Shown piece after piece: positions 12,129-57,862 of a DNA stretch of 64,000 bases. Origin of the DNA: Elusimicrobia bacterium GWB2_63_16 (GTDB lineage Bacteria > Elusimicrobiota > Elusimicrobia > Elusimicrobiales > UBA9959). The first letter of the stretch is position 1. Every line of letters begins with the position of its first letter. The notes below the pieces were generated by a model, which saw only the letters and a list, made by a program, of their open reading frames with translations, searched no databases and was not told the DNA's origin. Position numbers and translations under genes: made by a program. Location: contig MGTZ01000028.1 in NCBI GenBank assembly GCA_001799715.1, positions 10,954-74,953 on the forward strand, given 5' to 3'.

Positions 12129-12149
12129 CCGGAAAACGGTCCGCTGCAG

Positions 12150-12233: not shown

Positions 12234-12252
12234 GCTTTGCGTTCAAATCTTT

Positions 12253-40439: not shown

Positions 40440-40620
40440 AGAAAAAGCCCCGAAGCTGTCTTCAGGGCTTTAACCGCGCGGCAAGGCGTAGCCGTCCGCG
40501 CGGGGTCGTTCTTCTATCATCCGGACTTTACCGTCGGCCCCGGAGTTACACCGGATCTGCTCGTAAGAGCTTGCGGGCTTTACCGCCGGTGGGGAAATGC
40601 TCCCCGCCCTGAAGAACTAC
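40440..40620 (-). promoter_or_regulatory. FMN riboswitch (RFN element) with terminator/SD-sequestering hairpin
   Basis: Minus strand reads GTTCTTCAGGGCGGGGAGCATTTCCCCACCGGCGGTAAAGCCCGCAAGC...GATCCGGTGTAACTCCGGGGCCGACGGTAAAGTCCGGATGATAGAAGAAC, with P1 at 40611-40617 / 40508-40514. Then a 9-bp hairpin (40447-40468) plus U5, ending 2 nt before the ribBA AUG. Confidence 0.85.
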
Positions 40621-40636: not shown

Positions 40637-43600
40637 TTACTCCACGGTCGAACATATAGCGTACGCGGTTATATCCACGTTTGAGGCGAATTCGCAGGTC
40701 CAGACGGTATCGCTGGACGGGTAGGACTTCAGCAGGTTCACGGTCCCGGTCTGCGTGCAGCCGCCGCCCATCAGCACTTTGCCCGCCGTACAGCCGGCGG
40801 CGCAGATCGTATTAGCGGGACAGGGGGCGCTCACGCGCTCGCGCGAGGCGGCGAAACCGGTGGCCTTCACCTTGCCGGCCACGTCCAGCCGCTCGGCCGG
40901 GGAGGCGACGCCTATGCCCACGGTGCCGTTGGCCCTGACCACCAGGGTCGAACCTACTACCTCCAGCACGCTCTGCGTACCGGCGAGGCCGCCGCCGAGG
41001 ACGGAGGCCGAGGCGGAGAACAGCGAGTAGCCGTCCACGTGCAGCCTGGCCTGCGGCGCGCCGGTGTTGACGCCCAAGGACCTGGACGCCGTAGAGACGT
41101 ACAGCGCGGGGGTGGAGCCCGCGCCCGAGACGCTGACGGTCAGGTCGGTGGCCACGTGCAGGCGCGAGGCCGGGAGGAAATTCTTGTCGACCTCGCCGAC
41201 GATGAACGGTCCGGTATCCTTGATCCTGAAGGCCTGCACGCCGTTGCCCAGCGTGGTGGCGCCGCCGCGGTAGACGAGGTCGCGCTCCGAAGAGACCATC
41301 CCCAGCACGCCCTTCTGCGGGGTGGCGCCCTCGTTCCAGACTATATACGAGTTGCCGCCCAGGTTGGGGTACAGAGACAGGACCACTTCTTCGCCCGCCT
41401 TCTGGTCCAGGCGCAGCTGGCCCTTAAGATGGAGGTCCGACTGCGGGTTGAACAGGCCGCCAACGGCCAGCTTATTCTGCACGTAGACGCTGGTGCTGAA
41501 CAGCACGGCGTCGTAGAGGCCGCCGGTGCGGGCGGTGATGGTGGAGATCTGTATCAGGCCGGGCAGAGAATCCGTCACCAGGTTCGTCAGGCCCGAACCG
41601 TCGCCGAAGAAGCCGCCCTGCGCCGTTACGGAGGAGACGGCGTTGATGCCGCCGTTGACGGTGAGCAGGTGGGTCTGCGCCGTAGTGCCGATGGAGACCT
41701 TGCCGGCCGTTGTGCTGACGTAAAGTAAGGGCATGGCGTTGGCCGTGGCGCTGCTCACGAGCAGGTTCGCCATCACGTGGAATTTCTCGCGCGGCTGGTC
41801 CGCCGGGCTCGGCGAGCTGCCTATGCCGAACAGCCAGTTGCCGTACTGGTCGGCCTTTACGCGGAAGACTTCCTGGCCGCCGTTCCACGGGTCGCTGCCG
41901 ACCGCCCTGTAGATAAGGTCGCGCTCGAGGCCGCCGGGATAGCCCAGCACGCCAAGGTTCACGCCGCCGGAAGCCACCAGAGAGGAGTTGGTCCAATGTA
42001 TGTAGCTGTAATCGTTATAAGACTTGATGCTCAGTTTGGCCGCGCCGGTGACGGTGTTGGCGTAGGAGACCATGGCCTCGCCGGCCACGTCCAGCGGGGC
42101 GGCGGGGGCAGGCACCAGGACGCCCACCCTGCCGGCCGTGGTGACCGCCAGCGTATACGCGTTGGAGGTGGCCGAGCTGGACACCGTGAGGGCGTATTTA
42201 TGAGCGCCGAAGGAGGCCAGCGTGGCGCTGGCGGGTGAGACTATAAAGTTGCCGGTCATCGTATCCCCGGCCTTGAGCAGCTTGGTGGAGTCGGTGCCGG
42301 TCACGCTGGTGAGCAGCGAGCCGTTGCCGACGAAATACGGCGCGTTGACCACGCCGGCGCGCACCAGCACGCCGCTGGCCGTATCCAGGCTGTAAGTGGT
42401 CCCGGGGTCCCAGCCCCATATGGTGCCGGTGGTGGCCGTCACGTTGTAGAAGTTGCCGATGCCGGAGGGGGCGTGCACGGAGGCCGCGTGCATGGAGCCC
42501 TGGGCCGTAATGCTGGAGGTGGCGATGATGCCGCCGCCCACGGTCAGGCGGGCCAGGTAGGAGGCGCTGCCGATAGCGGTATTGCCGCCGAGCACCGAGA
42601 GGCTGGAGCCGCCCACGGAGAAGGCGCTGCCGGTCACGGTCAGCGTGGAGCCGGCGAGGGTCAACTGGCCGGTCATCGTGTCGCCGGCCTTGAGCACCTT
42701 GCTGGTGTCGGAGGAGATAAGGTTGATCAGGCCCGACCCGTCGCCGTAGAAAGTGGCCCCGGGCATCAGGTAAACGTGGGAGCTTATGAATATACCTCCG
42801 CGCTGCGCGGCGGCGGCCGAAGAGAGTTCTATCCCGCCGGCGAATTTGATCTTGGGGGACAGCAGGCCCTCGGCCGAAGCCACGGTCAGGGTGGAGCCGG
42901 AGAGGGTCAGTTGGCCCGTCATCGTGTCGCCCGCCTTGCGCAGCACGCCGGTGAGCGTGGTGCCGTCGCCGTAAAAAGAGCCCCCGTGCACCTGGCCCAG
43001 GCCGTTAACGAGGAACAGCTGGGAGGTGCCGGTGGAGACCAGCAGCAGGTCGCCGGTGTCGCCGGCGGCGGAGGAAATGTGCAGCCTGGCCTGCGGGTTG
43101 GTATTGTTCTGGCCGATGGACACGTTGCCGGGATTGATGGAGTAGACATGGGGGCCGGCCACTTCCCACATGGTCAGGGCGGCGGCCCTGGTCTGCACGG
43201 ACCCGTCGGGGAACTTGAAGCCGCAGGAGAGATCGTCGGCGCAGGCCGGCAGGGAGCCTTTGCTCTCCACCATGCCGGCCACGGCCAGGGTCTGGCCGGG
43301 GGAAATGGAGCCTACCGAGATGCCGCCCAGCACGAACAGGTTGGTGGAGATGGTGATCGCCCCGTTGGCGGTGGTGGGGTGCGCGCCGATGGTGTCGGCC
43401 AGGAACATGGAGGTGGCCACGGAAGAGGTGGTGGCGTAGACGGAGCTGAAAGAATACGGGGAAGCCTGCAGCTTGACGCGGGGGGACATGGCCTCGAAAG
43501 CGCCGGCGCAATCGTTGTCGCCGTCCACCTGGATCTCCAGCCACAGGCCGTCGCGCTCGGCGAAGATACTGGCGGGGATGCCGCCGGCTACCGCGGAACC

Positions 43601-43858
43601 TATCTCCACGTCATAGCGGCCCTTGGTCACCCTGACGTCGCAGCGGGTCTCGGAGAACAGCGGGCTGGTGATGCCGGTGGGAGTATCGTAGATATAGAAC
43701 TTCAGGTCCTGCGGCGTTTCCACCGGCAGGTTGGTGATCTTGCTGATCAGGTAGCCCTGGTAGTTTATCGTCGGGGTTATCACGGCGGCGGCTGGCGCCG
43801 CGAGCAGCAGCGCGCCCAGCGCGCCTGCGAGCAGATTTTTAACGTGAGTAGAATTCAT
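40637..43858 (-). CDS. Large secreted tail-fibre-like repeat protein with Cys-rich C-terminal knob
   Basis: 1073 aa with signal peptide and an N-terminal INYQGYL module. Repeated F(Y/F)GDGSGL..(L/V) and LKAGDTMTGQLTL(A/S)GSTLTV motifs (aa 295-326, 369-408, 508-540, 749-762). Duplicated ARLHV modules. Last ~70 aa contain 6 Cys. GGAGG SD. Confidence 0.8.
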   Translation of the reverse strand: MNSTHVKNLLAGALGALLLAAPAAAVITPTINYQGYLISKITNLPVETPQDLKFYIYDTPTGITSPLFSETRCDVRVTKGRYDVEIGSAVAGGIPASIFAERDGLWLEIQVDGDNDCAGAFEAMSPRVKLQASPYSFSSVYATTSSVATSMFLADTIGAHPTTANGAITISTNLFVLGGISVGSISPGQTLAVAGMVESKGSLPACADDLSCGFKFPDGSVQTRAAALTMWEVAGPHVYSINPGNVSIGQNNTNPQARLHISSAAGDTGDLLLVSTGTSQLFLVNGLGQVHGGSFYGDGTTLTGVLRKAGDTMTGQLTLSGSTLTVASAEGLLSPKIKFAGGIELSSAAAAQRGGIFISSHVYLMPGATFYGDGSGLINLISSDTSKVLKAGDTMTGQLTLAGSTLTVTGSAFSVGGSSLSVLGGNTAIGSASYLARLTVGGGIIATSSITAQGSMHAASVHAPSGIGNFYNVTATTGTIWGWDPGTTYSLDTASGVLVRAGVVNAPYFVGNGSLLTSVTGTDSTKLLKAGDTMTGNFIVSPASATLASFGAHKYALTVSSSATSNAYTLAVTTAGRVGVLVPAPAAPLDVAGEAMVSYANTVTGAAKLSIKSYNDYSYIHWTNSSLVASGGVNLGVLGYPGGLERDLIYRAVGSDPWNGGQEVFRVKADQYGNWLFGIGSSPSPADQPREKFHVMANLLVSSATANAMPLLYVSTTAGKVSIGTTAQTHLLTVNGGINAVSSVTAQGGFFGDGSGLTNLVTDSLPGLIQISTITARTGGLYDAVLFSTSVYVQNKLAVGGLFNPQSDLHLKGQLRLDQKAGEEVVLSLYPNLGGNSYIVWNEGATPQKGVLGMVSSERDLVYRGGATTLGNGVQAFRIKDTGPFIVGEVDKNFLPASRLHVATDLTVSVSGAGSTPALYVSTASRSLGVNTGAPQARLHVDGYSLFSASASVLGGGLAGTQSVLEVVGSTLVVRANGTVGIGVASPAERLDVAGKVKATGFAASRERVSAPCPANTICAAGCTAGKVLMGGGCTQTGTVNLLKSYPSSDTVWTCEFASNVDITAYAICSTVE

Positions 43859-43873
43859 AAGTCCTCCGCCGCC

Positions 43874-45490
43874 TTACCTGACCACGACCACGGTGCCGTT
43901 ATAGACGGTGCCGTCGGCCTCCAGCTGGTAGATGTAGACCCCGCCCGGCACCGCCTGGCCGCCGGCCTTGGCGTCCCAGACGAGGGAATTGGACACGGGA
44001 CCGCCCGTCATGCTGCCCACCAGGGCGCCGCGCAGGTCGTAGATCTTGCCTTTCACGCTCTTCTCCTGCGGGTTGTCGAAAATAAAGACCATCGTATCAT
44101 TTTTGCCGTCCCCGTTTGGAGTGATCAGGCGGTTGGTCAGGCCGGCTTTGTCCGCCGAGAAACCGCCGCTGCGCTCGGTGGTCCGCAGCTGGTAGCGCCC
44201 CAGCAGCCTGGTGTCCAGGCGCACGCTGCGCTCGTCCTCGTCGACTATGCCGTACATCTGCAGCCAGCGCGCGCCGTTGAAGTAGTACATGCTCAGCGCC
44301 TTGGCGTCCGCTCCGGCGGAGGGAACTATCGCGCCGCCGGCTTTGGCGTAATAGAGTTTCAGCGTGCCCTTGCTGGCCAGCTGGAAGAGCGGGTCAGCCT
44401 GCAGACCGCCGCGGTAGGCGGAGAACTCCACCGATTTGACCACGCGCCCGCTCAGGTCCTCGATATGCGTGGAGATGTCGAGAGTGTAGACGTCCATCGG
44501 ATCGGCCGAGGGGGAGAAGAAGCTGCCGGTGCCCTCCTGCGGCACCTCGAAGACGCTCTGGTTGTCGGGGGCCAGGAAGTAGAGGCCGCCCGACTCGCTG
44601 GAACGCACGTACGAAGGCAGCGAGACGCCGGCCTGGTTCACCGCGCGGGCGTGGTAGTAGTAGGGATCGGCGGTGGGAACGATGTCCGTCCAGTTCAGCG
44701 TGCTGGAGGAGGTTTCGGCGATCTGCACCCACTCCGCGTCGGCGGGAGCCGTGGCGCGGTAGACCTCGTATCTCTTTACCTCATAGGGGTACGACGGGCT
44801 GAAGCGGTTGTCGAAAGGGATGCGGTTCATGTACCCGGCCGGCGGGATCCAGGTCATGGTGACGGCGTTGCCGGTGCGCGCGAGCTGGAAGTTCATCGGG
44901 GCCAGCGGGGTCAGGGCCAGCGCCGCGGCGGCGTTGGAGATCTCCGAGCGCAGGTAATGGCTGTTGAGCGTCTCCATGGCGAAGTAATAGGTGGTGCCGG
45001 CCTGGAACCCCTCTACGATCCGGCTCTCGCGCGTGCCGGGCTCCAGCGGGACCCAGTCCTGGCCGTAGACCTGCGCCGCCGCGAAGCCCTCGTCGGTGGA
45101 GACCGGGGCGACGGAGCTGTAGCGCAGTATATAATAGCCGGCGGCCTCGGCGTTCCGGCTGGCGTCGGCGGAGGGGGCCGTCCAGGTGAGCCGGATGGAA
45201 TAACTGGAGACTATCACCGGCGTCAGGTCGAAGACCGGGGCGGGGAAAGGGTAATAAGCCAGCTTGCCGCTGCGGTGGATCAGACCGGAGGCCTCCTGCG
45301 TGGAGACGGCCAGGTCCTGCACGTTGCCGTTCATCTCGAAACTCGGCGAGACCATGTAGGAGGAGCCGTTGCCGGTGGCGCCGGTGATGTCTATGAAATT
45401 CGCGGAGGTGAGCCGGGAGGCGCGCGCCTGCCCGGCCGGCAGCAGGGCCGACAGGGCGAGCAGGGAAAAGAAACAGCGCCTGAAGTTCAC
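43874..45490 (-). CDS. Secreted protein with two FN3-like domains and a CHU_C / T9SS-type-B-like C-terminal domain
   Basis: C-terminus ITPNGDGKNDTMVF...KIYDLRGALV...WDAKAGGQAVPGGVYIYQLEADGTVYNGTVVVVR. FN3-like LTWTAPS / MTWIPPAG modules. I prefer the GTG at 45490, directly before the signal peptide FRRCFFSLLALSALLPAGQARA and 6 nt after a TATAAT. The track start is the ATG at 45562. Confidence 0.75.
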   Translation of the reverse strand: MNFRRCFFSLLALSALLPAGQARASRLTSANFIDITGATGNGSSYMVSPSFEMNGNVQDLAVSTQEASGLIHRSGKLAYYPFPAPVFDLTPVIVSSYSIRLTWTAPSADASRNAEAAGYYILRYSSVAPVSTDEGFAAAQVYGQDWVPLEPGTRESRIVEGFQAGTTYYFAMETLNSHYLRSEISNAAAALALTPLAPMNFQLARTGNAVTMTWIPPAGYMNRIPFDNRFSPSYPYEVKRYEVYRATAPADAEWVQIAETSSSTLNWTDIVPTADPYYYHARAVNQAGVSLPSYVRSSESGGLYFLAPDNQSVFEVPQEGTGSFFSPSADPMDVYTLDISTHIEDLSGRVVKSVEFSAYRGGLQADPLFQLASKGTLKLYYAKAGGAIVPSAGADAKALSMYYFNGARWLQMYGIVDEDERSVRLDTRLLGRYQLRTTERSGGFSADKAGLTNRLITPNGDGKNDTMVFIFDNPQEKSVKGKIYDLRGALVGSMTGGPVSNSLVWDAKAGGQAVPGGVYIYQLEADGTVYNGTVVVVR

Positions 45491-45496
45491 AATGTA

Positions 45497-45502
45497 ATTA
45501 TA
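45497..45502 (-). promoter_or_regulatory. TATAAT -10 box 6 nt upstream of the GTG at 45490
   Basis: Reverse complement of attata at 45497-45502, within the AT-rich divergent intergenic region. Confidence 0.4.
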
Positions 45503-45594
45503 TACCGGCCGTGCGACCAAAATATTACAAAGAGATTTCGGCTTACGCCGGGCAGAATCCATAAATATGAAACAAAACAGTCACAAATGAAAAG

Positions 45595-45600
45595 TAGAAT
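45595..45600 (+). promoter_or_regulatory. TAGAAT -10 box 8 nt upstream of the ATG at 45609
   Basis: tagaat at 45595-45600, then tagtctgt, then ATG. No SD. Confidence 0.4.
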
Positions 45601-45608
45601 TAGTCTGT

Positions 45609-46010
45609 ATGAAGCCCTGCAAAGCCGTTCTCAGCCTCCTCGCCGCGCTGGCGCTCGCCCCCGCGGCGGCGTTCTGCTCCGCGTCGGCGCTCGGCCGCTC
45701 CGTGGCGCTCAACCGCCTGGTGACGCCCAACAACGACAAGAAGAACGACACTTTTATTTTCCGCTGCTATAACCCGCGCGACGCGGCCGTGGACGCGAAG
45801 ATCTACGACCTCGCCGGCCGCGAGGTGGCCCAGATGCGCCTCAAGCAGCGCTCCAACGGCACGCCGCCCGTACAGGACAACAGCTCGGGAGAATTCTACG
45901 ATCTGGAGTGGGACCCGAACCGGGGGGAGAAGTACCCCGGCGGCGTCTACGTCTACCAGGTCCGGACGGAAGAGCAGGTGTATAAGGGTACTGTAGTCAT
46001 TATAAGGTAA
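45609..46010 (+). CDS. Stand-alone CHU_C / T9SS-type-B-like sorting-domain protein (signal peptide plus domain only)
   Basis: 133 aa. Signal peptide, then LVTPNNDKKNDTFIF...KIYDLAGREV...WDPNRGEKYPGGVYVYQVRTEEQVYKGTVVIIR, collinear with the C-terminus of the 43874 gene. Confidence 0.75.
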   Translation: MKPCKAVLSLLAALALAPAAAFCSASALGRSVALNRLVTPNNDKKNDTFIFRCYNPRDAAVDAKIYDLAGREVAQMRLKQRSNGTPPVQDNSSGEFYDLEWDPNRGEKYPGGVYVYQVRTEEQVYKGTVVIIR

Positions 46011-46017
46011 GCGACAT

Positions 46018-47988
46018 ATGAACCGCGCCACCGCCACGAAGACCGCTCTGACCGCAGCCCTGCTGCTGGCGCCGCTTTGCGTACGGGCGGCCTTCGAGGA
46101 CCTGGGCTTCGGGGCCAGGGGCCCCGGCATGGGCGACGCCGTCACCGGCGTGGCCGACGACGTTTCCTCGGTCTACTACAACCCCGCCGGCCTCGGCGGC
46201 CTGGAGCGCCCGAAGGCGCTGGCCTCCCATTCCCTTTTCCACGGGGGGCTCAGCGACGGCTCCAGTCTGGGCCTCAGCGTGGCCGCGCTGGCCATGCCCA
46301 TAGGCAACGGCCGCCACGGCACCATCGGCGCGGCCTGGCAGGATTTCTCGCTCTCCGGCGTCTATTACGAGAAGACCGGCACCGTGGCCTGGGGCTACCG
46401 CTTCGACCGCGGCAGCCGCTACGAGAAACTTTCGGTGGGCGCGTCGCTGAAATACCTGTCGCACGGCTTCTCGCGCCTCGACGAGGCTTACAACGCCGTG
46501 ATGGAAAACCTCTCCCAGACCGGCGCCACGGACCCGGTGCTGGCCGGCGCCAACTCCCGCGGCGCCCTGGACGCCGATCTGGGCGCGCTGTACCGCCTCA
46601 CCAACCGGTGGACGCTCGGCGCGGCCATACTCAACGCCATGCAGGCCAACGTGGCTTTCAGCGAGTCCGACAAGGACCCCGTGCCCATGAAGGCCCGGCT
46701 GGGCGCCTCGTTCAAGAGCCTCTGGCTGCTCCTGTCCGCCGACGCCAGGCTGCAGAAGGGCCCCGACGGCAGCCTGGACAAGCAGTTCGTGGTGGCGGCC
46801 GAGAAGGTGTTCCCCAGCCTCGACCGCGGCGAGTTCGGCGTGCGGGGCTCGCTCGGCGCCGGCGACAGGGAATTCAAGCAGGCCACGCTGGGTCTCTCCT
46901 ACAAGATACAGCGCATACAGTTCGACTACGGCTTCATGCTGCCCATCGGAACGGTCAAAGAGACCTCCGGCAACCACCGCATGGCCCTGTCCTACCATTT
47001 CGGCACGCCTACCCAGTCCGAGATCGCCGAGAGCGAGCTGCTGGACCAGTACAAGCGCCTGCGCGAGACGCAGAACTACAAGGGCGCCCGCGATACCGCC
47101 AGCCTCAACGACCCCCGCCTGGCCGAAGTGAAAGAGCAGGTGCTGCGCGAGAATTATTACGCGGCCAACAAGCTGCTGGTGGCCAAGGCGGGCGAGCTGC
47201 TGCCCGATTCCTCCGTGGTCAACCTCACGCGCCGGCTCTCGGCCGTCGCGGCCTACTACCCGTCGCTGGCCCCCGAGCCGGGCCGCGGCCGCCAGCGCTG
47301 GGAGGACCTGCTCGCCAGCGGCGTAAGGGATTTCGTGAACGGCGCCGACAACCGCGCCATGAAGAAGCTGGCCTACGCCCAGAGCCTCAACCAGCAGGAC
47401 GGCGGGCTGGCCAACTTCCTGGACAAGGCCGGCGAGATCTCCCGCATTACGCCGGACAAGGTGCCGGCCGATTTCAGCCGCGGCTGGCCCGAGTACAAGC
47501 TGGACCAGTCCGACGAGTTCTACGCCAAGAAGCGCTATTCCGAGGCGCTGCGCAAGCTCGAGGAACTGCTGGACATAGAGCCGGCCTACCTGATGGCCCT
47601 TAAGAAGAGCGGCTCCTGCAACTATATGCTGGGCGCCTACTCCCGCGCCGCCCGCGACTGGGAGAAGGCCTCGCGCGCCGAGCCGGACCCGGTGGAGAAG
47701 GCCAAGCTGGCCAAGATGACCGCGGAGGCCCGCAAGAAGCAGGGCACGGAATCTTCCTGGGAGCCCGAGACCGGCTCCTACCGCGACGAAGCGGCGGGCG
47801 AGCCCGTGCTAACCGGCGCGGCGGCCAACGCCAGGGAGATCGAGAAGCTCTACCAGGCCGGGGCCGACGCCTACGCGAAGGGCGAATACGGCAAAGCGGC
47901 CGACGCCTTCCGCAAGATCCTGACGCTGGACCCGCAGAACACGCAGGCCAAGAAGGCCCTGGAGCGCATCATCAGGCTCTCCAGGTAA
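46018..47988 (+). CDS. Outer-membrane beta-barrel (PorV/PorQ/FadL-like) fused to a C-terminal TPR/helical domain
   Basis: Signal peptide. GARGPGMGDAVTGVADDVSSVYYNPAGLGG motif near the N-terminus, as in the PorV/PorQ/TraF/FadL-type barrels I recall. Alternating-strand pattern to about aa 330 (ends HRMALSYHF). Then TPR-like repeats to aa 656. Confidence 0.65.
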   Translation: MNRATATKTALTAALLLAPLCVRAAFEDLGFGARGPGMGDAVTGVADDVSSVYYNPAGLGGLERPKALASHSLFHGGLSDGSSLGLSVAALAMPIGNGRHGTIGAAWQDFSLSGVYYEKTGTVAWGYRFDRGSRYEKLSVGASLKYLSHGFSRLDEAYNAVMENLSQTGATDPVLAGANSRGALDADLGALYRLTNRWTLGAAILNAMQANVAFSESDKDPVPMKARLGASFKSLWLLLSADARLQKGPDGSLDKQFVVAAEKVFPSLDRGEFGVRGSLGAGDREFKQATLGLSYKIQRIQFDYGFMLPIGTVKETSGNHRMALSYHFGTPTQSEIAESELLDQYKRLRETQNYKGARDTASLNDPRLAEVKEQVLRENYYAANKLLVAKAGELLPDSSVVNLTRRLSAVAAYYPSLAPEPGRGRQRWEDLLASGVRDFVNGADNRAMKKLAYAQSLNQQDGGLANFLDKAGEISRITPDKVPADFSRGWPEYKLDQSDEFYAKKRYSEALRKLEELLDIEPAYLMALKKSGSCNYMLGAYSRAARDWEKASRAEPDPVEKAKLAKMTAEARKKQGTESSWEPETGSYRDEAAGEPVLTGAAANAREIEKLYQAGADAYAKGEYGKAADAFRKILTLDPQNTQAKKALERIIRLSR

Positions 47989-48015
47989 GGGGGGACGGAC
48001 CGCAGGCGCAGCCGT

Positions 48016-49347: not shown

Positions 49348-49366
49348 CTTTGTAACCTGCTTTATA

Positions 49367-49372
49367 TACAAT
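49367..49372 (+). promoter_or_regulatory. TACAAT -10-like hexamer 6 nt upstream of the GTG at 49379
   Basis: AT-rich 30-nt gap after the kinase stop: tttatatacaatatagct GTG att ATG. Confidence 0.3.
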
Positions 49373-49378
49373 ATAGCT

Positions 49379-50830: not shown

Positions 50831-52812
50831 GCCGCCCCGCCGACGCCTTCGACTCCGACCTGGACTACCTGTGGCGCGCCGTGGGCGAGGCCCAGGACGC
50901 CTCGTCCCGCTCCGAGGCAGAACGCGCCGAGGCCCGCAAAAGCCTCGCGCTCTATGCCTCCAGGGCCGCGCTGCTTGAGAAACAACTGGCCGAGAGCCAC
51001 GCCCGCGAGAGGCATTTGAAGGCCGAAGCCGAGAAGCTGCGCTCCGCCGCCGGGCTCGGCTCGGAACGGCTGGCCGCCGCCGCCGCGGCCGCGCGCGAAG
51101 CCGAAGAGCTGCGCAGCGCCCTGCTGCGCAAGGAGGGTGAGCTCGCCGCCGCCGCGCCCGAACTCGAGGACCTGCGCGCCAGATCGAAAAATCTGCGGGA
51201 GGCCCTGGCCGCCCGCGACGAGGCTATCGCCGCGTTCAGGGGCAAGCTCACGGCCATAATGGAACTGCCCGAGATAGACCGGTTGCTGCGCGCCGACGAG
51301 GCCGCCACCGGCAAGCCCCGCCCGCTTTACGAGGAACTGCTGGAACGCCTGGAAGCCTCCAGGCGCGCCGCCGCCGGCTCGGCCGCCGCGCTGGCCGCCG
51401 CCGCCGAAGGGGAGGCCGCAGCCCGCCTGACCCTGGAAGCCGCCGAAAAGGAACTGGCCGAACAGCGCGACGCGCTGCGGCAGAAGAATTTGGATCTGGA
51501 AGGGCTGAAGAAGGCTGTCAGCGAGGCCGCCTATCAGGCGAGGATCTCCGGGGAGGAGAAGCAGGCGCTGGAAAGCCGCGCCGCCGCCCTCAAGGCCGCC
51601 ATAGCAGAGAAAGAAGCCGCCCTGGCCGCGGCCGCCGACGAGTCCGCCTCGCTGCGCGCCCGCCTGGACGCCTCCCGGGAGGAGGCCGAGCGCCTGCGCC
51701 AGTCAGCCGACGAGCATTCGGTAAAGGCGCAGGAGCAGCGCAGCAATTTTTCGGGAGCGGTGAGCCAGGTCTTCGACCTGCAGAACCGCGCCGCCGCGCT
51801 CAAAACGGCGCTGGGCGAGGCGCAGGAGCGCAGCGCGGCCGCCGCCTCCATGCTCAAGGCCCGCGAGGCCGACCTGGAAAAGGTCAACGGCCTGCTGCGC
51901 GACGCCAAGGGCGCCCTGACGCAGGAGAAGGAAGTTTCCCGCCGGGAAATGGTGAAGATAAAGGCGCTGGAGGCCGAGATAGACGCCCTCAAGACCAAGC
52001 TGGGCGCCGCCGCCGATTATTCGGCGCGGCTGCTCAAGGCCGTGGAGGAGCGCGACCTGGCCCTGGGCGCCGGCAAGGCCGCGCAGGCGCAGGACGGCAA
52101 GAAGCTGGCCGACCTCGAGATCGAGAACGAGGACCTGCGCCGAAAGAACATAAAATTTACCGGCCTCCTCAAGCGCGAACAGGCCGATTTCTCGGCCAGG
52201 ATGCTGGTCTCGCTGGAGCGCTCCGCCAGGGAGCTCAAGAATTTCAACCTGCGCATCCCCGCCGCCGAGCGCAAGGCGCTCGAGCCCGCGCTGAAGACGC
52301 TTTTCGCCTCCGTGAACCTGCTCAAGGGCTGGCAGGAGTACCTGGACCCCGAGACCCCCGACATGGAAGACACCGACCTCGCCTCCCTGGTTTCCGTCGA
52401 GACCGGCAAGTGGGAACGCGCCTTCAAGCAGCGCAAGATCTCCATCACCGCCGCCATCCTCAACCCGCGGCTGCGCGCGCGGCTGGCGCCCGAGCGCGTG
52501 AAGATGCTGTTCTACAACCTCATCAAGAACGCCTACGAGCGCCTGCAGCAGGGCGGCAGCCTGCGCGTGACCATGAAGAGTTCCGACGACGCGCGCCTGG
52601 CCGTCTTCACCTTCGAGGACACCGGCCCCGGCTTCGCCCGCGAGGCGCTGGACAAGCTTTTCGCCCCGTTCAACACCACCGACAAGGGCAAGGCCGGCAT
52701 AGGCCTGGCCGTGGCGCGGCGCATAGCCGAGAAGCACGGCGGCACGCTGGAAGTCACCAACAAGAAAGAACGCGGGGCCATAGTGGAAGTGCGCCTGCCC
52801 CTGGGCGTATAA
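50827..52812 (+). CDS. Cytoplasmic long coiled-coil protein with C-terminal HATPase_c domain (kinase-like, H-box apparently degenerate)
   Basis: Track ORF 49882-52812 trimmed to the GTG at 50827 (GTGA overlap with the upstream stop). About 450 aa of Ala/Glu/Leu/Arg heptad-like sequence. C-terminus has N-box FYNLIKNAYERL and G-boxes EDTGPGF / GKAGIGLAVA. The H-box position reads VSLERSARELKN. Confidence 0.65.
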   Translation: MSRPADAFDSDLDYLWRAVGEAQDASSRSEAERAEARKSLALYASRAALLEKQLAESHARERHLKAEAEKLRSAAGLGSERLAAAAAAAREAEELRSALLRKEGELAAAAPELEDLRARSKNLREALAARDEAIAAFRGKLTAIMELPEIDRLLRADEAATGKPRPLYEELLERLEASRRAAAGSAAALAAAAEGEAAARLTLEAAEKELAEQRDALRQKNLDLEGLKKAVSEAAYQARISGEEKQALESRAAALKAAIAEKEAALAAAADESASLRARLDASREEAERLRQSADEHSVKAQEQRSNFSGAVSQVFDLQNRAAALKTALGEAQERSAAAASMLKAREADLEKVNGLLRDAKGALTQEKEVSRREMVKIKALEAEIDALKTKLGAAADYSARLLKAVEERDLALGAGKAAQAQDGKKLADLEIENEDLRRKNIKFTGLLKREQADFSARMLVSLERSARELKNFNLRIPAAERKALEPALKTLFASVNLLKGWQEYLDPETPDMEDTDLASLVSVETGKWERAFKQRKISITAAILNPRLRARLAPERVKMLFYNLIKNAYERLQQGGSLRVTMKSSDDARLAVFTFEDTGPGFAREALDKLFAPFNTTDKGKAGIGLAVARRIAEKHGGTLEVTNKKERGAIVEVRLPLGV

Positions 52813-52839
52813 AGAAAAAGGGCGGGAAAGCTCCCGCCC
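52811..52839. terminator. Bidirectional terminator between convergent operons
   Basis: Hairpin gggcggga-aagc-tcccgccc (52820-52839) preceded by aaagaaaaa. This gives a U-run on the minus strand. Confidence 0.6.
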
Positions 52840-52860
52840 GTGCCGCCGGTACAGCCAGCC

Positions 52861-53541
52861 TTACAGCCTGAAAATGTAGCCCAGCCTGAAGATAGTCCCT
52901 ATCTTGCTCCCGAAGCGCCCCAGCTTGCGGCGCAGGGCCTCTATGCGCTTGTCCACGGCGCGGGGGCCGGCTTCGGCCGCGTCCTTCCACACCTGTTCCA
53001 GCAGGACGTAGCGCGAGACCACGCGCCCCTGGTTGCGGAGGAAATAGAGAAGGATGTCGAATTCCAGGGCCGTGAGCCTCACCTTTTTGCCGCCAACGCT
53101 GGCAGCGCGGGCCTCCGGCGAGATGAGCAGGTCGCCGAACTCGTACTCGGCGGGTTTCTCCGGCCGCGGCCGGCCGGCGGGGCCGCGCCCCAGCAGGTTC
53201 AGCAGCCGCGCCCGGAACAGCAGCGGGTCGGGGGGGAAGGCGAAATACTCGTCGGCGCCGCTATCGAAAGAGGCGGCGGCCGCGGCCGGGGAATAGGGGG
53301 CGGCGCCGGTCAGCACCAGCAGCAGGCCGGCGGTCCCGGGGGACCCGCGCAGCGCGGCCACCAGGTCTCCGCCGCCCATGTCCGGCAGCGCGGCGTCTAT
53401 CACGGCCAGCCCGGCGGCCGGGGGGGCTTTCAGAAAAGCGGCGGCGGTGGGGTAGAACTTCAGCGCGAAGCCCGCCAGCGCGGCGCGGTAAAAGGCCCGG
53501 GCGGCGGGATCGGAGGTAAGACAGAAGGCGGCAGGCTTCAT
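52861..53541 (-). CDS. OmpR-type winged-helix regulator with atypical receiver domain
   Basis: C-terminal LTALEFDILLYFLRNQGRVVSRYVLLEQVW...VDKRIEALRRKL trans_reg_C pattern. The receiver keeps the D in VIDAALPDM, lacks the N-terminal DD pair, and has YFAFP where Y-x-x-KP is expected. Confidence 0.8.
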   Translation of the reverse strand: MKPAAFCLTSDPAARAFYRAALAGFALKFYPTAAAFLKAPPAAGLAVIDAALPDMGGGDLVAALRGSPGTAGLLLVLTGAAPYSPAAAAASFDSGADEYFAFPPDPLLFRARLLNLLGRGPAGRPRPEKPAEYEFGDLLISPEARAASVGGKKVRLTALEFDILLYFLRNQGRVVSRYVLLEQVWKDAAEAGPRAVDKRIEALRRKLGRFGSKIGTIFRLGYIFRL

Positions 53542-53915
53542 GCGGGCAGCACGGCGGCTTTAATGCGGCGCAGGAGCTCGTCGGGGTCGAACGGCTTGAG
53601 CACGTAGCCGGCCGCGCCGAGCGCGAGGCCCTGCGAGACCATGTCCAGCTCGGAACGCACGGTAAAGAAAATGATGGGGGTTTTGGCCAGGGCCGGGACC
53701 TTGCGGATACGGCGGGCGGCCTCGAACCCGCTGACGTCGGGCAGACCCACGTCGAGCAGGATCAGGTCGGGGAGTTCCCTGGCGGCCAGCTCCACCCCCG
53801 GCAGGGCGGCGGCGGCGGTGAGCACGGCGCAGCCGGCCTTGGCCGCTATGCGCGAGGCGATGCGCAGGTAATCGGGTTCGTCGTCCACCACCAGGATCAC
53901 GGGGCGGGGGGTCAT
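53538..53915 (-). CDS. Single-domain response regulator (CheY-like)
   Basis: ILVVDDEPD, LILLDVGLPDVSG, FFTV, and YVLKPF. Confidence 0.9.
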   Translation of the reverse strand: MTPRPVILVVDDEPDYLRIASRIAAKAGCAVLTAAAALPGVELAARELPDLILLDVGLPDVSGFEAARRIRKVPALAKTPIIFFTVRSELDMVSQGLALGAAGYVLKPFDPDELLRRIKAAVLPA

Positions 53916-54298
53916 TTCTTCCTGGTCAGGTCCTCTACTTTCTTCTGCAGGTAGGAGAGTTCCACGGTCTTGCTCATGAACTCGCGGCAGTTGGACTCCT
54001 GCCGGAACAGCTCGCTCATGTTCTTGTCGAAGAACGTGCCGGTGATGACCAGCACCGGGATGGAGCGGGTCTCGTCGTCGGCCTGCAGGCCGCGGATGAC
54101 CTCTATGCCGCCGATGTCGGGCATCATCACGTCGCAGAGGATGATGTCCGGGCGTATGGCCTTGGCCTTCAGCAGGCCCTCGCGCCCGTTCTCTGCGATC
54201 TCCACCGTGAAACCGAGGTCGGTGAAATAATCGCAGACCATAGTCCGGAATTCCACGTTGTCGTCAACGATAAGCATCAGTCCCATATTCTGTCCCAT
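53912..54298 (-). CDS. Single-domain response regulator (CheY-like)
   Basis: LIVDDN, IILCDVMMPDIGG, and VLVITG. Confidence 0.9.
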   Translation of the reverse strand: MGQNMGLMLIVDDNVEFRTMVCDYFTDLGFTVEIAENGREGLLKAKAIRPDIILCDVMMPDIGGIEVIRGLQADDETRSIPVLVITGTFFDKNMSELFRQESNCREFMSKTVELSYLQKKVEDLTRKK

Positions 54299-54330
54299 GC
54301 GGTCTAGTATATTTCAAATGCGCCCGGTTT

Positions 54331-56451
54331 TCAAGAGGGCGAGGGGATGGGCGGGGGCGGGGCCGCCAGCGACTTGGCCACGGTGAAGATGAACTTGCTG
54401 CCTTTGCCCACCTCGGACTCCACCCAGATGTCGCCCTTGTGCAGCTGCACCGTCATCTGGCACATGGCCAGGCCCAGGCCGAAGCCCTGGCTCTTGTGCT
54501 CCTCCATCTGGCCGTATTTCTCGAAGATCTCCTTGCGCTTGGCCTCCGGAATGCCGGGGCCGGTGTCCTGCACGGCGAAGAACACCTGCTTATCGTCCTC
54601 CCAGGCGGAAAGCGTGATGGTGCCGCCGCCGGGGGTGAACTTGAGCGAGTTGCCCATCAGGTTGGTGATGACGCGCTCGAGCAGGGTCGGGTCGGCGGTG
54701 AAACTGATCTTCGCCGGCGGGGGGACCACCACGAGCTTGATGTTCTTGGGCCCGGCGACCGGCTCGTGGTTGTCCTTGATGCGCGCGATCACGGTCTCGG
54801 CGTCCACCGTGTCGAGCTGCAGCGTCATCGTGCCGCGCTCGAGCTTGGTGACGTTGAGGATGTCGTCGATCATGCCGCGCAGGCGGCGCGACGAATAGAG
54901 CATGCTCTGGAGATACTTGTCGGTGGCGGGGGAGGGGCCGATCTTCTTCATCAGCAGCTCCGTATAGCCCTGCAGGGTCGACAGCGGGGCGCGCATGTCG
55001 TGCGTGATCATGTGGAAGAAATCTTCCTTGGCCTTTTCGATCTCCTTCTCGCTCGTGATATCGCGGATGATGATGACGCGGCCCGGGCGCTTGAGCGTGG
55101 CCAGCAGGAACTGGTTGGAGATGACGCGGAAGCTCTTGGTCACCGTGGAAGTCTCGTTGACGAGCGGGGCGTCCAACTCGGTCTTAAGGTACTTCTCCTT
55201 GTGCGCCAGCATCTCGGTCAGGGCGTTGAAGAAAGCTTCGTTCTTGACGGAGCGGGGGACGGCCACCTCGGGGGAGATCTTGGGGATGCCGAGGAGCTTG
55301 AGCGCGGTGTTGTTGCAGTAGATCAGCGAGCCGCGGTCGTCTATCAGCAGCACGCCGTCGGAGATGGTGTCGATGAGCGCCTGGGCCTTGCCCTTCTCCT
55401 CCACGATCTGGTTGAGCTGGAAGGCGCGGTAGGCCTGCAGCTCCAGCATCAGTCGGTTGAGCACGCCCACGAGCGACTTGATCTCGGGCCAGCCCTCGGC
55501 GGGGATCACATTGTCCAGGTGCTGGGTGCGCAGAAAGCCTTTGACGCCGCCCACCATGTTGTTGATGGGGCGGATGATGCGGTTGGAGACCAGGAACACC
55601 ACGACCATGGCGATGGCGAAAATGACGACGGCCAGCGCCGCGAACACGATGATGGATTTGCGCTGCTTGCCGTAGAGTTCCTCTTCGGACTGCACCGAGA
55701 CGGCGGCCCAGTCCAGGTCCTCGATGGCGGCGTAGGCGCCGGCGAACTCCTCGCCGGAGAAAAGGAACTGGGACAGCGTGCCGGTGCGGCCGCCGCTGCG
55801 GAAGACCTTGCGCAGGTCCTCCGGCTTGAAGTCCAGGCCTTTCATGTCCTGGCAGGGGAGGGGCTTGCCCTGGCGGTCGGAGATGAAGACGCGGCCGCTG
55901 GCGCCGGTCTTCTGGGAATTGATCTTGCCCAGCAGTTTGTCCATCGAGAAATGGAACACGACCACGCGGCCGTCCACCAGCGGGTAGGCCAGCGGGAAGT
56001 AGGTCTGCGCGCGCAGGCAGATGGGGTCCCCGGTGGAGACCACGCCGCTGTCGGCGGCCTTGGCCACCAGCGCGGCCTGGAAGGAGGCGAGGGACTTCTT
56101 TTCGCGCACGGTCTCGCTCTGCAGGAAGAACAGCTCCTTCCCGTCGGCGGCGACCAGCGCCAGCGACATGATATCGGAATTGATGCGCGCCGCCTGCTGT
56201 ATCACCTGCGTCTCGTCCACCTTCCTGCCGCGCAGGGGGTTCTCGAACTCGTAGAGAAAGGCGAGGTTGCGGTTGGTGTTCTTGAGCCACTCGTCCACGT
56301 TGGCGGCCGACAGCCGGGACAGGCCCTTGTGCAGTTCGAAATAGCTGGCCACCGAGGAGTTGTACTGATAGACGTTCCAGCCGACGGCCAGCACGAGCGG
56401 GAGCACCGCTATGCCCAGCAGGATCAGCAGGAACCTCGTGGTCAGTTTCAT
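54331..56451 (-). CDS. Sensor histidine kinase (periplasmic Cache-like domain, HAMP, PAS, HisKA, HATPase_c)
   Basis: Two TM helices flank a ~240-aa periplasmic domain. H-box FFHMITHDMRAPLSTLQGY. NLMGNSLKF, QDTGPGI, and GFGLGLA motifs. Confidence 0.9.
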   Translation of the reverse strand: MKLTTRFLLILLGIAVLPLVLAVGWNVYQYNSSVASYFELHKGLSRLSAANVDEWLKNTNRNLAFLYEFENPLRGRKVDETQVIQQAARINSDIMSLALVAADGKELFFLQSETVREKKSLASFQAALVAKAADSGVVSTGDPICLRAQTYFPLAYPLVDGRVVVFHFSMDKLLGKINSQKTGASGRVFISDRQGKPLPCQDMKGLDFKPEDLRKVFRSGGRTGTLSQFLFSGEEFAGAYAAIEDLDWAAVSVQSEEELYGKQRKSIIVFAALAVVIFAIAMVVVFLVSNRIIRPINNMVGGVKGFLRTQHLDNVIPAEGWPEIKSLVGVLNRLMLELQAYRAFQLNQIVEEKGKAQALIDTISDGVLLIDDRGSLIYCNNTALKLLGIPKISPEVAVPRSVKNEAFFNALTEMLAHKEKYLKTELDAPLVNETSTVTKSFRVISNQFLLATLKRPGRVIIIRDITSEKEIEKAKEDFFHMITHDMRAPLSTLQGYTELLMKKIGPSPATDKYLQSMLYSSRRLRGMIDDILNVTKLERGTMTLQLDTVDAETVIARIKDNHEPVAGPKNIKLVVVPPPAKISFTADPTLLERVITNLMGNSLKFTPGGGTITLSAWEDDKQVFFAVQDTGPGIPEAKRKEIFEKYGQMEEHKSQGFGLGLAMCQMTVQLHKGDIWVESEVGKGSKFIFTVAKSLAAPPPPIPSPS

Positions 56452-56457
56452 ACGTAC

Positions 56458-57084
56458 TTAGATCTCGTGCCTTATGATGTTGATCTCTATGCGCCGGTTC
56501 TTGGAGCGCCCTTCGGGGGACTCGTTGGTCTGTATCGGCTTGAACTCGCCGTAACCCACGGCGGAGAGCTTCTCGGGGGCCACGCCTTCCTTAATGAAGA
56601 ACTGCAGCACCGAGAAGGCGCGGGCGCTGGAGAGTTCCCAGTTGGAGCGGAAGCGGGTGCCGCGGCCCAGCGGGCGGTTGTCGGTGTGGCCCTCTATCTG
56701 GATGGGGTTGGGCAGGTCCTGGAAAACGGCGGTCAGGCGGCGCAGGTGGGGGTAGGAGGAGGGCTTGAGCACATCGCTGCCCGGCGTGAACAGGATAGGG
56801 TCGGAGAAATTGATGCTGATCTTGTTGGCCGAGATCTCCACCTGGGCTATCTGCTGTATGCCGTGCTTGGAGAACAGGGTGCTGGCCACCTCGGTGTCCT
56901 TGCCGAAGGTCTCCTCGATGGCCTTGGCGGAGAACTGGGAGGTGATGTTCTTGGAGCTGTAGAAAGCGAAGAGGATCATGAAGAAGATCATCAGGTAGCT
57001 CATCATGTCGCCGTAGGTGATGGCCCACAGCGCGCCCCGGTTGAGCTCGTTCTCCAGTTCGTCCTCGCGTTCGTAGAAGCGCAT
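56458..57084 (-). CDS. motB: MotB-type stator subunit (OmpA-like peptidoglycan-binding domain)
   Basis: WAITYGDMMSYLMIFFMILF with the conserved channel Asp. C-terminal IEGHTDNRP...NWELSSARA...NRRIEI OmpA-like motif. Confidence 0.85.
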   Translation of the reverse strand: MRFYEREDELENELNRGALWAITYGDMMSYLMIFFMILFAFYSSKNITSQFSAKAIEETFGKDTEVASTLFSKHGIQQIAQVEISANKISINFSDPILFTPGSDVLKPSSYPHLRRLTAVFQDLPNPIQIEGHTDNRPLGRGTRFRSNWELSSARAFSVLQFFIKEGVAPEKLSAVGYGEFKPIQTNESPEGRSKNRRIEINIIRHEI

Positions 57085-57088
57085 AGTT

Positions 57089-57862
57089 TTATTTACCCTT
57101 GGCCGCGGAGCCGCCGTCGAGCGTCAGGTAGCCGCGCAGGTGCATGTCTATGAGGTGGGGGGTCTTGCCGCTCATGATATCGATCACGCCCTCGAGGATG
57201 AGCTGCAGCACCAGCGTCTCCTCCATGGCGCGCAGGCGGATCTTGTTGGCCACCGGCACGCAGAACATGTTGGAGAAGCCGATACCGAACAGGGCCGAAG
57301 TGATGGCCACGGCCATGGAGCGGCCGATGGCGGTGGGGTCGGAGATGTTGGAGAGCGTCTGGATGATGCCGAACAGGGTGCCGATCAGGCCGAACATGGG
57401 GGAGAGCACGCCGGCGGTGCGGTACAGGTTGGAGTCCTCGGAGATGTCCAGGCGGCGCAGGCGGATCTCCTCTTCCAGTATGGCGCGGGTCTCGCGCGAC
57501 TCCGCGCTGACCATGGCCACGCCCACCGCGCGCTTCAGGAAGCCGTTGGCGAAGGAGGCGTCCACGCTGGTCAGGGCCATGATGCCGCCCTGCTTCTGCG
57601 CGGTCTCGGCCATGCCCACGAGCATGCGCACCGCCTCGTGCACGGAGGGCATCTTGGGGGAGGAGAAAATGGCCGCGAGGGCCTTGAGGCCGGTCACGAA
57701 GCGCCTGTAGGAGGTGTTGATGATGGTGGCGGCCAGGGTGCCGCCCAGCACTATCACGATGCCGTGGGAGTTGAAGATGTTGCCGGCCACGCCCGAGGAA
57801 TAGGCGCCCCAGGCCACCACGGCCCCGCCCAGCACGAAACCCACGATCGTCATCATATCCAT
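57089..57862 (-). CDS. motA: MotA-type stator subunit (MotA/TolQ/ExbB proton-channel family)
   Basis: 257 aa, 4 TM. Collinear by eye with MotA/PomA (MDMMTIVGFVLGGAVV..., GVLSPMFGLIGTLFGII, AITSALFGIGFSNMFCVPVANKI, ILEGVIDIMSGKTP). GGAG SD. Confidence 0.85.
   Translation of the reverse strand: MDMMTIVGFVLGGAVVAWGAYSSGVAGNIFNSHGIVIVLGGTLAATIINTSYRRFVTGLKALAAIFSSPKMPSVHEAVRMLVGMAETAQKQGGIMALTSVDASFANGFLKRAVGVAMVSAESRETRAILEEEIRLRRLDISEDSNLYRTAGVLSPMFGLIGTLFGIIQTLSNISDPTAIGRSMAVAITSALFGIGFSNMFCVPVANKIRLRAMEETLVLQLILEGVIDIMSGKTPHLIDMHLRGYLTLDGGSAAKGK

Follow-up and report, generated by a model that had tools for sequence, protein, structure and literature searches.

In the bacterial flagellum, MotA5B2 stator units rotate and push on the C-terminal domain of FliG. 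FliG, like MotAB of the flagellar type, is regarded as a hallmark of that organelle. Fusions of FliF to FliG support motor function in Salmonella. The Agl-Glt machinery of Myxococcus ties an ion-driven inner-membrane motor to tetratricopeptide repeat (TPR) proteins, outer-membrane (OM) barrels and surface adhesion, and brings about flagellum-independent movement. Among the genes for gliding with the adhesin SprB, sprB and sprF are adjacent. The subject of the present analysis is a block of 13 genes (g1–g13) in a 64,000-nucleotide stretch of DNA, called the window throughout, from Elusimicrobia bacterium GWB2_63_16 (assembly GCA_001799715.1, contig MGTZ01000028.1, positions 10,954–74,953). The source is an uncultured groundwater bacterium of the phylum Elusimicrobiota. 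The block, to which an original prediction made from the sequence alone had drawn attention, brings together a flagellar-type MotA/MotB pair, a candidate rotor in which a FliF-like segment is fused to FliG domains, an OM barrel, secreted surface proteins and two-component proteins. Chances are judged to be about even that these genes encode one module: a flagellum-free, ion-driven rotor–stator coupled to an OM surface-protein complex.

Several described systems provide points of reference. A recent phylogeny defines a 'flagellar ion transporter' clade for flagellar-type stators (PMC12505986). Engineered FliF–FliG fusions form rings (PMC10941966, PMC11481574). The secretion system termed type IX (T9SS) uses a MotAB-related 5:2 motor (PMC8986121, PMC9127263), and GldLM motors drive movement of the SprB adhesin (PMC8986121). 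T9SS cargo is held by PorP/SprF and PorV (PMC9143113, PMC12618676), PorP-like barrels holding proteins whose C-terminal domain (CTD) is of type B (PMC9143113). PorA, a small CTD-only protein of Porphyromonas gingivalis, signals to the PorXY two-component system (PMC12152298, PMC7712824). According to PMC10202324 and PMC12398890, T9SS is described only for Bacteroidota and the FCB group.

For Elusimicrobiota themselves, the most pertinent source is Uzun et al. (10.1101/2022.07.08.499144). It states that most free-living members of the phylum hold 'numerous homologues' of motAB, flbD and fliG and no structural flagellar genes, that a complete flagellar set occurs in only a few genomes, and, as a guess, that the orphan motAB/fliG homologues are linked to gliding. 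Beyond this passing remark, no description of a FliF–FliG/MotAB/barrel cassette was found in the literature.

Stator and rotor

The A subunit of the stator, g8 (57089..57862, minus strand), matches Pfam MotA_ExbB (PF01618) at 1.3e-18 and the PomA/MotA equivalog models of NCBIfam at 1e-46, under their curated cut-offs. MotA/PomA chains in the PDB are matched end to end, across residues 1–247 (phmmer, 1e-36 to 3e-35), whereas TolQ/ExbB models reach only 4e-4 to 2e-3. Four transmembrane (TM) helices and full-length similarity to MotA/PomA identify g8 as an A subunit of the flagellar type. The B subunit, g9 (56458..57084, minus strand), contains MotB_plug (1e-9) and OmpA (2.2e-20) domains in Pfam and matches the MotD/MotB equivalog models at 4e-45, under cut-off. 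The conserved channel aspartate can be read directly from its TM helix, in the stretch ITYGDMMSYL. A TM aspartate, a plug and an OmpA-like peptidoglycan-binding domain are thus all present, as in flagellar B subunits. The cytoplasmic charges that pair with FliG (PomA R88/K89 and E96/E97) are canonical only in part: lysine K89 is retained in alignments of the cassette MotA proteins, and the other positions are changed, as set out below. MotB is the best-conserved protein of the cassette, with 73–99% identity across Elusimicrobiales species, and appears to be under strong constraint. Together, g8 and g9 constitute a flagellar-type MotA/MotB stator pair with plug, channel aspartate and peptidoglycan anchor.

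The candidate rotor is g6 (49379..50830, plus strand), a FliF-like/FliG fusion of 483 aa. Pfam assigns FliG_C at 6.8e-14, FliG_M at 3.9e-5 and YscJ_FliF_C (PF08345) at 9.5e-4; the last value is below cut-off, and several g6 homologues match PF08345 on their own. The protein starts with a signal or TM segment, followed by a periplasmic region resembling the FliF RBM3/collar (residues ~30–165), a TM helix (~180–205), a glycine-rich linker, and the middle and C-terminal domains of FliG (FliG-MC, ~260–480). A profile of 14 family members matched FliG-MC of Thermotoga maritima in the PDB (1lkv) at 2.6e-23 over residues 261–476. The AlphaFold2 (AF2) model of g6 presents, in order, a hydrophobic helix at the N-terminus, a periplasmic alpha/beta domain that includes two long strands, a long membrane helix (~179–217), a disordered glycine-rich linker and an all-helical FliG-like part. 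Foldseek relates g6 to FliG structures at ~1e-7. The N-terminal domain is related first to MS-ring structures of the FliF RBM3/collar (2e-3 to 1e-2, TM-score ~0.5 by target) and then to PrgK/EscJ.

Parts of both flagellar proteins are missing from the fusion. Pfam, the profile and the model all find the M and C domains of FliG only, with no FliG N-domain, and the periplasmic part, of only ~140 residues, lacks FliF RBM1 and RBM2. The g6 protein is best described as a putative 'mini-FliF' (membrane segment, RBM3-like domain and membrane helix) fused to FliG-MC. The covalent link takes the place of the FliG N-domain, which normally binds FliF. In the family alignment, the torque-helix position that corresponds to E. 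coli FliG D288 remains acidic (K-D or K-E) in nearly all members. This is also true of a flagellar member from Margulisbacteria. The FliM-binding motif EHPQR is replaced by E-P-x-E-D in the aligned cassette proteins. This loss agrees with the absence of fliM and fliN from the block.

Outer-membrane barrel and surface proteins

The barrel protein g4 (46018..47988, plus strand; 656 aa) consists of a PorV/PorP/FadL-type barrel (residues ~25–330) and a TPR or helical-repeat domain of ~320 aa. It matches NF033709 PorV_fam at 2e-14, under the NCBIfam cut-off, TIGR03519 PorP at 5e-4 and TPR_2 at 2e-9. The AF2 model (predicted local distance difference test, pLDDT, 80) has 14 beta-strands between residues 66 and 328 and helical repeats from there to the C-terminus. 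Foldseek matches at ~1e-7 include FadL/TodX/OmpG barrels and chain 8gl6_F of the T9SS RemA-CTD complex. The 151 homologues of g4 measure ~650–690 aa, and all named ones come from Elusimicrobiota. Homologues match PF11751 PorP_SprF, and PGAP often labels them 'T9SS membrane protein PorP/SprF'. The protein is thereby placed with the T9SS barrels of the PorV or PorP/SprF family. The modelled number of strands is even, which would put the repeat arm in the periplasm.

Genes for secreted proteins lie next to the barrel gene. The product of g1 (43874..45562, minus strand; 562 aa) carries fn3 (3.1e-7) and, at its C-terminus, CHU_C (1.8e-7), both over the Pfam gathering score. TIGR04131, the model for the type B CTD, matches at 1.5e-6, under cut-off. 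The true start of g1 is probably the GTG at 45490, as the original prediction had it: this codon gives a cleaner signal peptide than the start of the open reading frame (ORF) at 45562. Every complete cassette has a g1 orthologue, including the distant one, L005, discussed below. The small protein g3 (45609..46010, plus strand; 133 aa) comprises a signal peptide and a stand-alone CHU_C domain (1.2e-7, over the Pfam gathering score); the type A model TIGR04183 matches at its cut-off (3.7e-5) and TIGR04131 under cut-off. Its counterpart in L005 matches the type A CTD model at 4e-7. Cross-hits in tblastn between g3 and the C-termini of g1 orthologues show 41–43% identity, and g3 is a paralogue of the g1 C-terminus. 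The CTD scores of g1 and g3 are marginal and do not clearly distinguish type A from type B. The models that fell below their curated cut-offs (YscJ_FliF_C, PorV_fam, TIGR04131) are backed by structure comparison and by the matches of homologues.

A further secreted protein, g2 (40637..43858, minus strand; 1073 aa), is encoded by an ORF that begins with a signal peptide. It is rich in Gly, Ala, Ser and Thr, bears three KAGDTMTG motifs and has a Cys-rich C-terminus. No Pfam family matches it over cut-off. Orthologues in Elusimicrobiales loci are 40–88% identical, making g2 the least conserved protein of the cassette, and tblastn found none in L005; g2 is therefore counted as accessory. It can be regarded as a candidate surface fibre, specific to the lineage and outside the conserved core. 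The protein had at first been called tail-fibre-like. It is indeed secreted and motif-bearing; it did not prove to be a member of the conserved core, and the fibre label comes only from the KAGDTMTG motifs and sub-threshold matches. Origin from a phage tail fibre was considered and rejected, the support being limited to a weak PHROG minor-tail match (3e-4). The term 'fibre-like' is retained here without family assignment.

Signalling proteins

Three kinase-like proteins and three regulators are encoded in the 13-gene block. The membrane sensor histidine kinase g5 (48016..49347, plus strand) has two TM helices and HAMP, HisKA and HATPase domains in Pfam. A second membrane sensor kinase, g10 (54331..56451, minus strand), has the Pfam arrangement dCache-PAS-HisKA-HATPase, and its orthologue in L005 is 31% identical over the full length. 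The third kinase-like protein, g7 (50827..52812, plus strand; 661 aa), is cytoplasmic and joins a coiled coil to an intact GHKL ATP-binding domain. Both elements had been proposed at the outset and both were recovered: Pfam matches HATPase_c at 5.9e-21, and a coiled coil of ~500 aa is predicted by eye from the sequence. HisKA is absent by Pfam. The alignment of g7 orthologues contains the N, G1 and G2 boxes and no conserved histidine, and a canonical histidine kinase is ruled out by the lack of a conserved phospho-acceptor. The gene follows g6 directly, or overlaps it, in all cassettes.

The regulators are encoded together. Two of them, g11 (53912..54298, minus strand) and g12 (53538..53915, minus strand), are receiver-only, CheY-like proteins with Response_reg matches of 1.9e-18 and 1.1e-26, respectively. 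The first is 61–98% identical across Elusimicrobiales loci, and the second is kept in L005. The third, g13 (52861..53541, minus strand), is a DNA-binding regulator of the OmpR/PhoB type. It matches Trans_reg_C at 4.2e-17 without a Response_reg match, and NCBIfam alignments start only at about residue 43. Orthologues of g13 in other loci retain a recognizable receiver, and that of g13 itself is degenerate.

Conservation of the cassette

A scan of one genome per species yielded 45 Elusimicrobiota loci, 21 of them with full 10-kb flanks. All 13 genes are present in 20 of these 21, which come from Elusimicrobiales species, and gene losses in loci without full flanks coincide with contig ends. The closest g6 proteins among species representatives belong to Elusimicrobiales CA_2019_TPIn_50 (97%) and HGW-Elusimicrobia-3 (96%). 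The latter genome (o_Elusimicrobiales; f_UBA9959; g_UBA9959) measures 2.9 Mb and has 63.8% G+C. Homologues of g6 at 45–100% identity, as far as they are named, all come from Elusimicrobia or Elusimicrobiota metagenome bins.

Near relatives also share the rib and bcd/purB flanks, and distant relatives are for this reason the stronger test of a module. Two distant loci, P0123 (33–35% identity) and L005 (28–29%), have unrelated neighbours and the same run of domains, as read from the gene table in the case of P0123. Eleven of the 13 genes are kept in L005 with some rearrangement, according to tblastn: g1, g3, g4, g5, g6, g7, g10, g12, g13, motB and motA. Only g2 and g11 were not found there by this method. 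The same gene order is seen in a further example, L090. That the genes would be co-located in relatives was a check proposed with the original prediction; it was run, and co-location was found in related and distant genomes, including those with differing neighbours. The block is a real conserved module.

More divergent variants keep a similar set of partners. A single strand of L011 encodes a 2773-aa surface protein, a barrel with TPR, a kinase-FliF/FliG fusion, a 252-aa protein, MotA and MotB. L006 encodes a 2152-aa protein, a PorV_fam barrel with TPR and a kinase-FliF/FliG fusion. The two fused proteins (L006 8821–11349 and L011 10001–12511; P0171 and P0192) are 836–842 aa long and have HisKA-HATPase at the N-terminus. 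From this fusion it is argued that g5 and g6 act together. In a locus from Endomicrobiales (L009, GCA_016930715.1), a surface protein with a length of 2988 aa or more is encoded together with a FecR-like protein, a FliF/FliG fusion, MotA, two MotB proteins and a TPR protein. The two motB genes lie in tandem behind the single motA (L009 12426–13849). The Elusimicrobia bin HY554 contains two divergent rotor paralogues, P0126 and P0266, which suggests that some lineages have more than one cassette per genome. One member of the g6 family (P0272, 705 aa) is deposited as 'Thermoprotei archaeon'. Its contig measures 4.9 kb and is probably bacterial and mis-binned.

The wider family of fused rotors

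Searching 1.84 billion representatives with a g6 profile produced 4447 matches, 67 of them below 1e-30. Of the 150 best cluster representatives, nearly all share the architecture of g6, with its hydrophobic N-terminal segment and a membrane helix at about residue 190. A second search for homologues, with a profile of 46 sequences, added a single new protein to the close relatives already found. Outside Elusimicrobiota, a locus search with a narrow g6 profile found only ordinary FliG genes (Desulfobulbus and others).

The fusion also occurs in a flagellar setting. In Candidatus Margulisiibacteriota (L007 3096–14538, GCA_041650635.1), a FliF(RBM3-like)–FliG(MC) fusion of 480 aa heads a true flagellar cluster, where it takes the place of fliF and fliG as separate genes. 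The genes after it are motA, a motB whose product has a LysM domain, a fliK-like gene, a flgE-like gene, fliM, fliN, fliPQR, flhB and flhA. A flagellum built on an MS-ring protein without RBM1/2 would be unusual in itself. Another member of the g6 family has flbD and motA after it. The rotor protein is thus one of a wider family and not confined to the cassette. Fused rotors appear to be a natural flagellar design in some lineages, a relative of which the Elusimicrobiota cassette would use in a non-flagellar setting.

No such flagellar context surrounds the present block. Among the scanned ORFs of the 64-kb window there are no flagellar, T9SS-core or pilus genes, in line, for the flagellar and T9SS genes, with what had been predicted; fliPQR, flhAB, fliI and the rod, hook and filament genes are all missing from it. 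Every other cassette locus examined likewise lacks fliM/N and genes for the export gate, rod, hook and filament. Independence from a flagellum is further supported by what Uzun et al. state about most free-living Elusimicrobiota.

Proposed mechanism and alternative explanations

A mechanism can be proposed that uses all of these parts. (i) The g6 protein would oligomerize through its RBM3-like domain to form a membrane ring that displays FliG-C domains. (ii) Wall-anchored MotA5B2 units would turn this ring by ion flow. (iii) The periplasmic collar of g6 would engage the TPR arm of g4. (iv) The g4 barrel may hold the CTDs of g1 (and g3), by analogy with PorP/SprF and PorV and their T9SS cargo. 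(v) Torque or force could then be passed on to the adhesins at the surface, and in this lineage to the g2 fibre as well, so that they are moved or deployed in the manner of SprB driven by GldLM. The outcome might be gliding-type surface motility or regulated adhesion. (vi) Kinases, the histidine-less g7 and the CheY-like regulators would adjust or signal the motor state, with expression under the control of the OmpR-type regulator. This specific scheme, in which MotAB turns a self-contained FliF(RBM3)–FliG ring and torque passes along a TPR arm to an adhesin-bearing PorV/PorP-type barrel, would amount to an unrecognized envelope machine. It is put forward tentatively, at somewhat less than an even chance.

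Several observations weigh against the scheme. Sequence gives weak support to the FliF-like assignment of g6 (9.5e-4, below cut-off) and fold comparison gives moderate support (E ~2e-3), and the g6 model has a mean pLDDT of 68.6. Charged positions at the stator–rotor interface are partly changed: in the cassette MotA proteins, PomA R88 is replaced by Q or H together with a one-residue insertion, and E96/E97 by T, S, Q or N, and the position of FliG R281 is not Arg in the g6 family, the flagellar-cluster member included. One full-length locus, L039 14858–21338 of Elusimicrobia bacterium UBA11697, has no adjacent motAB; its stator genes have been either relocated in that genome or lost. The block contains no SprA/Sov-like translocon and no identified route by which g1 and g2 would cross the OM. 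Finally, a complement of three kinase-like proteins and three regulators would suit a mainly sensory device too.

Such a device is the first alternative to be weighed. Here the kinases would read the MotAB/FliF–FliG assembly, its load or its ion flux. The complex would sense the envelope, surface contact or the ion-motive force and govern how the surface proteins are expressed, without doing mechanical work on them. Besides the share of signalling genes among the 13, the direct fusion of HisKA-HATPase to the rotor in two lineages speaks for it, as does the position of g7, an ATP-binding, histidine-less relative of kinases whose start overlaps the stop of g6. A sensor, however, would have no need for a complete stator, plug and wall anchor included, kept at 73–99% identity, nor for the constant pairing of a barrel-TPR protein with very large surface proteins. 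It is considered rather unlikely as the whole explanation, although sensory and mechanical roles are not mutually exclusive. T9SS-type CTDs in g1 and g3 and a PorV/PorP-type barrel could instead mean that the motor powers export of the CTD proteins, and of the fibre, through a translocon encoded elsewhere, with the barrel as a shuttle; PorLM/GldLM would be the parallel. T9SS does use a MotAB-related 5:2 motor (PMC8986121, PMC9127263), and PorA–PorXY signalling (PMC12152298, PMC7712824) resembles the arrangement of g3 adjoining a kinase. Genes for SprA/Sov, PorK/N and PorL/M are nevertheless absent from the block and from the variant loci examined, the CTD scores are marginal and of ambiguous type, and T9SS has been described from Bacteroidota and the FCB group alone (PMC10202324, PMC12398890). 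A role as secretion energizer is accordingly viewed as unlikely and doubtful.

Could the motor genes be leftover or relocated flagellar genes that came to lie beside unrelated surface-protein genes by chance? The same fusion sits in a genuine flagellar cluster of Margulisbacteria and, elsewhere, beside flbD-motA, and Uzun et al. report full flagellar sets in a few Elusimicrobiota genomes. Chance neighbours would hardly be kept together, however, in 20 of 21 full-flank loci and again among other neighbours at ~30% identity. MotB is strongly constrained, the FliM-binding motif is lost, and the motor genes are translationally coupled to non-flagellar ones; most free-living Elusimicrobiota, according to the same source, have these genes and no structural flagellar genes. 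Relics of a flagellum are a very improbable source of the block. Even further from probable is a Zorya-like anti-phage defence built on a MotAB-type motor. Zorya has a MotAB-like 5:2 motor (PMC11946911), and the cassette MotB matches ZorB models at 1e-23, but it matches flagellar MotB/MotD models far better (4e-45). There is no ZorA match for g8, no PADLOC match for g8, g6, g7, g4, g2 or g1, and no ZorC/D-like nuclease or helicase; unlike defence islands, the block sits at a stable chromosomal site that housekeeping genes flank in the different species. Defence systems, Zorya among them, were rejected, the generic MotB–ZorB similarity being all that PADLOC returned.

Gene organization and flanking sequences

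The 13 ORFs were found at the positions originally predicted, in three transcription units: g1–g2 (unit i, minus strand), g3–g7 (unit ii, plus strand) and g8–g13 (unit iii, minus strand). The spacing given for unit (ii) also agrees with the ORF list, with gaps of 7, 27 and 31 nt and an overlap of 4 nt (GTGA) between the g6 stop and the g7 start. Four-nucleotide overlaps join the three regulator genes g11, g12 and g13 of the minus-strand unit. The family assignments that had been proposed (MotA, MotB, FliG-MC, FliF RBM3-like, PorV/PorP-type barrel, CHU_C) are borne out by profile searches and fold comparisons alike. The divergent, AT-rich intergenic region between units (i) and (ii) (45563..45608) is presumed to hold promoters; these are only inferred, because no consensus sigma-70 match was found there. 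A GC-rich hairpin, GGGCGGGAAAGCTCCCGCCC (52820..52839), lies between the convergent units (ii) and (iii), where a shared terminator had been expected. The hairpin is there, and its T-tail is on the side of the minus-strand unit only; the plus-strand unit ends at a hairpin without a tail, which is not a canonical terminator. It is read as an intrinsic terminator for the minus-strand unit alone.

To the left, the block borders on an FMN riboswitch (40505..40620, minus strand) with the rib operon behind it. The riboswitch begins 16 nt past the stop codon of g2 and has the same orientation. As no terminator was detected in the interval, transcription of g1–g2 may run into the riboswitch and the rib genes. 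To the right, bcd-etfBA begins at 58050. The bcd-etf genes directly follow the Cache kinase gene in the UBA11697 locus. Outside the block the window carries housekeeping genes (ackA, lon, clpP, tig, plsX, rnc, nuo, rib, bcd-etf, pgi), and its G+C content is 62–70%. The minus strand carries genes for tRNA-Leu(tag) and tRNA-Lys(ctt) at 12044–12324, between tig and a SpoIID/TPR gene. Three regions (3563–4639, 20493–21563 and 22058–22942) contain ORFs of 294–358 aa with high third-position G+C and no Pfam match at 1e-5.

Comparison with known systems

If the proposed machine exists, it would add a new use of this kind of motor to those known from the flagellum, T9SS/gliding, Ton/Tol, Agl-Glt and Zorya. 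A little-known phylum, including its magnetotactic members without flagella, would gain a candidate mechanism of motility or adhesion, and Elusimicrobiota might move over surfaces or deploy adhesins in a new way. The cassette makes it testable whether a rotor–stator pair works apart from the type III export core. The fused FliF–FliG family spans flagellar and non-flagellar contexts, and its phylogeny could address this question; it could show either a rotor–stator pair before or outside the flagellum, or a later exaptation. The gene set further suggests that PorV/PorP barrels and T9SS-type CTDs work outside a canonical T9SS.

The flagellar motor core is the closest relative of the motor part. 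Both have stator subunits of the MotA/PomA and MotB types, with plug, channel aspartate and OmpA-like anchor, and both have FliG-MC domains; g6 also has a domain that resembles the FliF RBM3/collar. The covalent link in g6 resembles that of engineered FliF–FliG fusions and of the natural fusion in Margulisbacteria. The cassette rotor differs in its lack of FliG-N, of RBM1/RBM2 and of the EHPQR motif, and in partly changed charge pairs. It is also accompanied by other partners, namely a barrel-TPR protein of the OM, surface proteins with a CTD and two-component proteins. By gene content the cassette would not be classed as a flagellum, having no FliG-N, no FliM/N or motif to bind them and no export or axial genes nearby.

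T9SS and the gliding machinery resemble the remainder of the block. In each case a 5:2 ion-driven motor family is genetically tied to a 14-strand barrel of the PorV/PorP kind and to proteins with CTDs of the CHU_C/Por_Secre_tail type. The gene for a CTD protein adjoins the barrel gene, as sprB adjoins sprF, the stand-alone CTD protein g3 near a sensor kinase recalls PorA–PorY, and variant loci contain very large adhesin genes. The cassette motor, however, is MotAB with a FliG-type rotor and not GldL/GldM, the barrel carries a long TPR arm, the CTD matches are marginal, and Elusimicrobiota stand outside the group for which T9SS is described. SprA/Sov, PorK/N (GldK/N) and PorL/M (GldL/M) are encoded neither in the window nor in any cassette locus examined, and with no SprA, PorK/N or PorL/M nearby the cassette would not be classed as a T9SS.

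Agl-Glt shares the general plan of an ion-driven motor with TPR proteins, an OM barrel and surface adhesion. Its motor is of the TolQR/ExbBD type and works without a FliG-type rotor, whereas the cassette stator matches flagellar models; no Glt homologues were detected in the cassette. The orphan motAB and fliG genes remarked upon by Uzun et al. are the same genes in the same phylum. The remark in that source is made only at the level of KEGG assignments and covers neither the fusion nor the barrel-TPR protein, the proteins with CTDs, the kinases and the conserved gene order. The original prediction had held that no described system has this gene set. This stands for the set as a whole and has to be qualified for orphan motAB/fliG, which were already published for the phylum. 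At the level of gene content, the cassette described here is regarded as a new kind of system, the function of which is so far a proposal.

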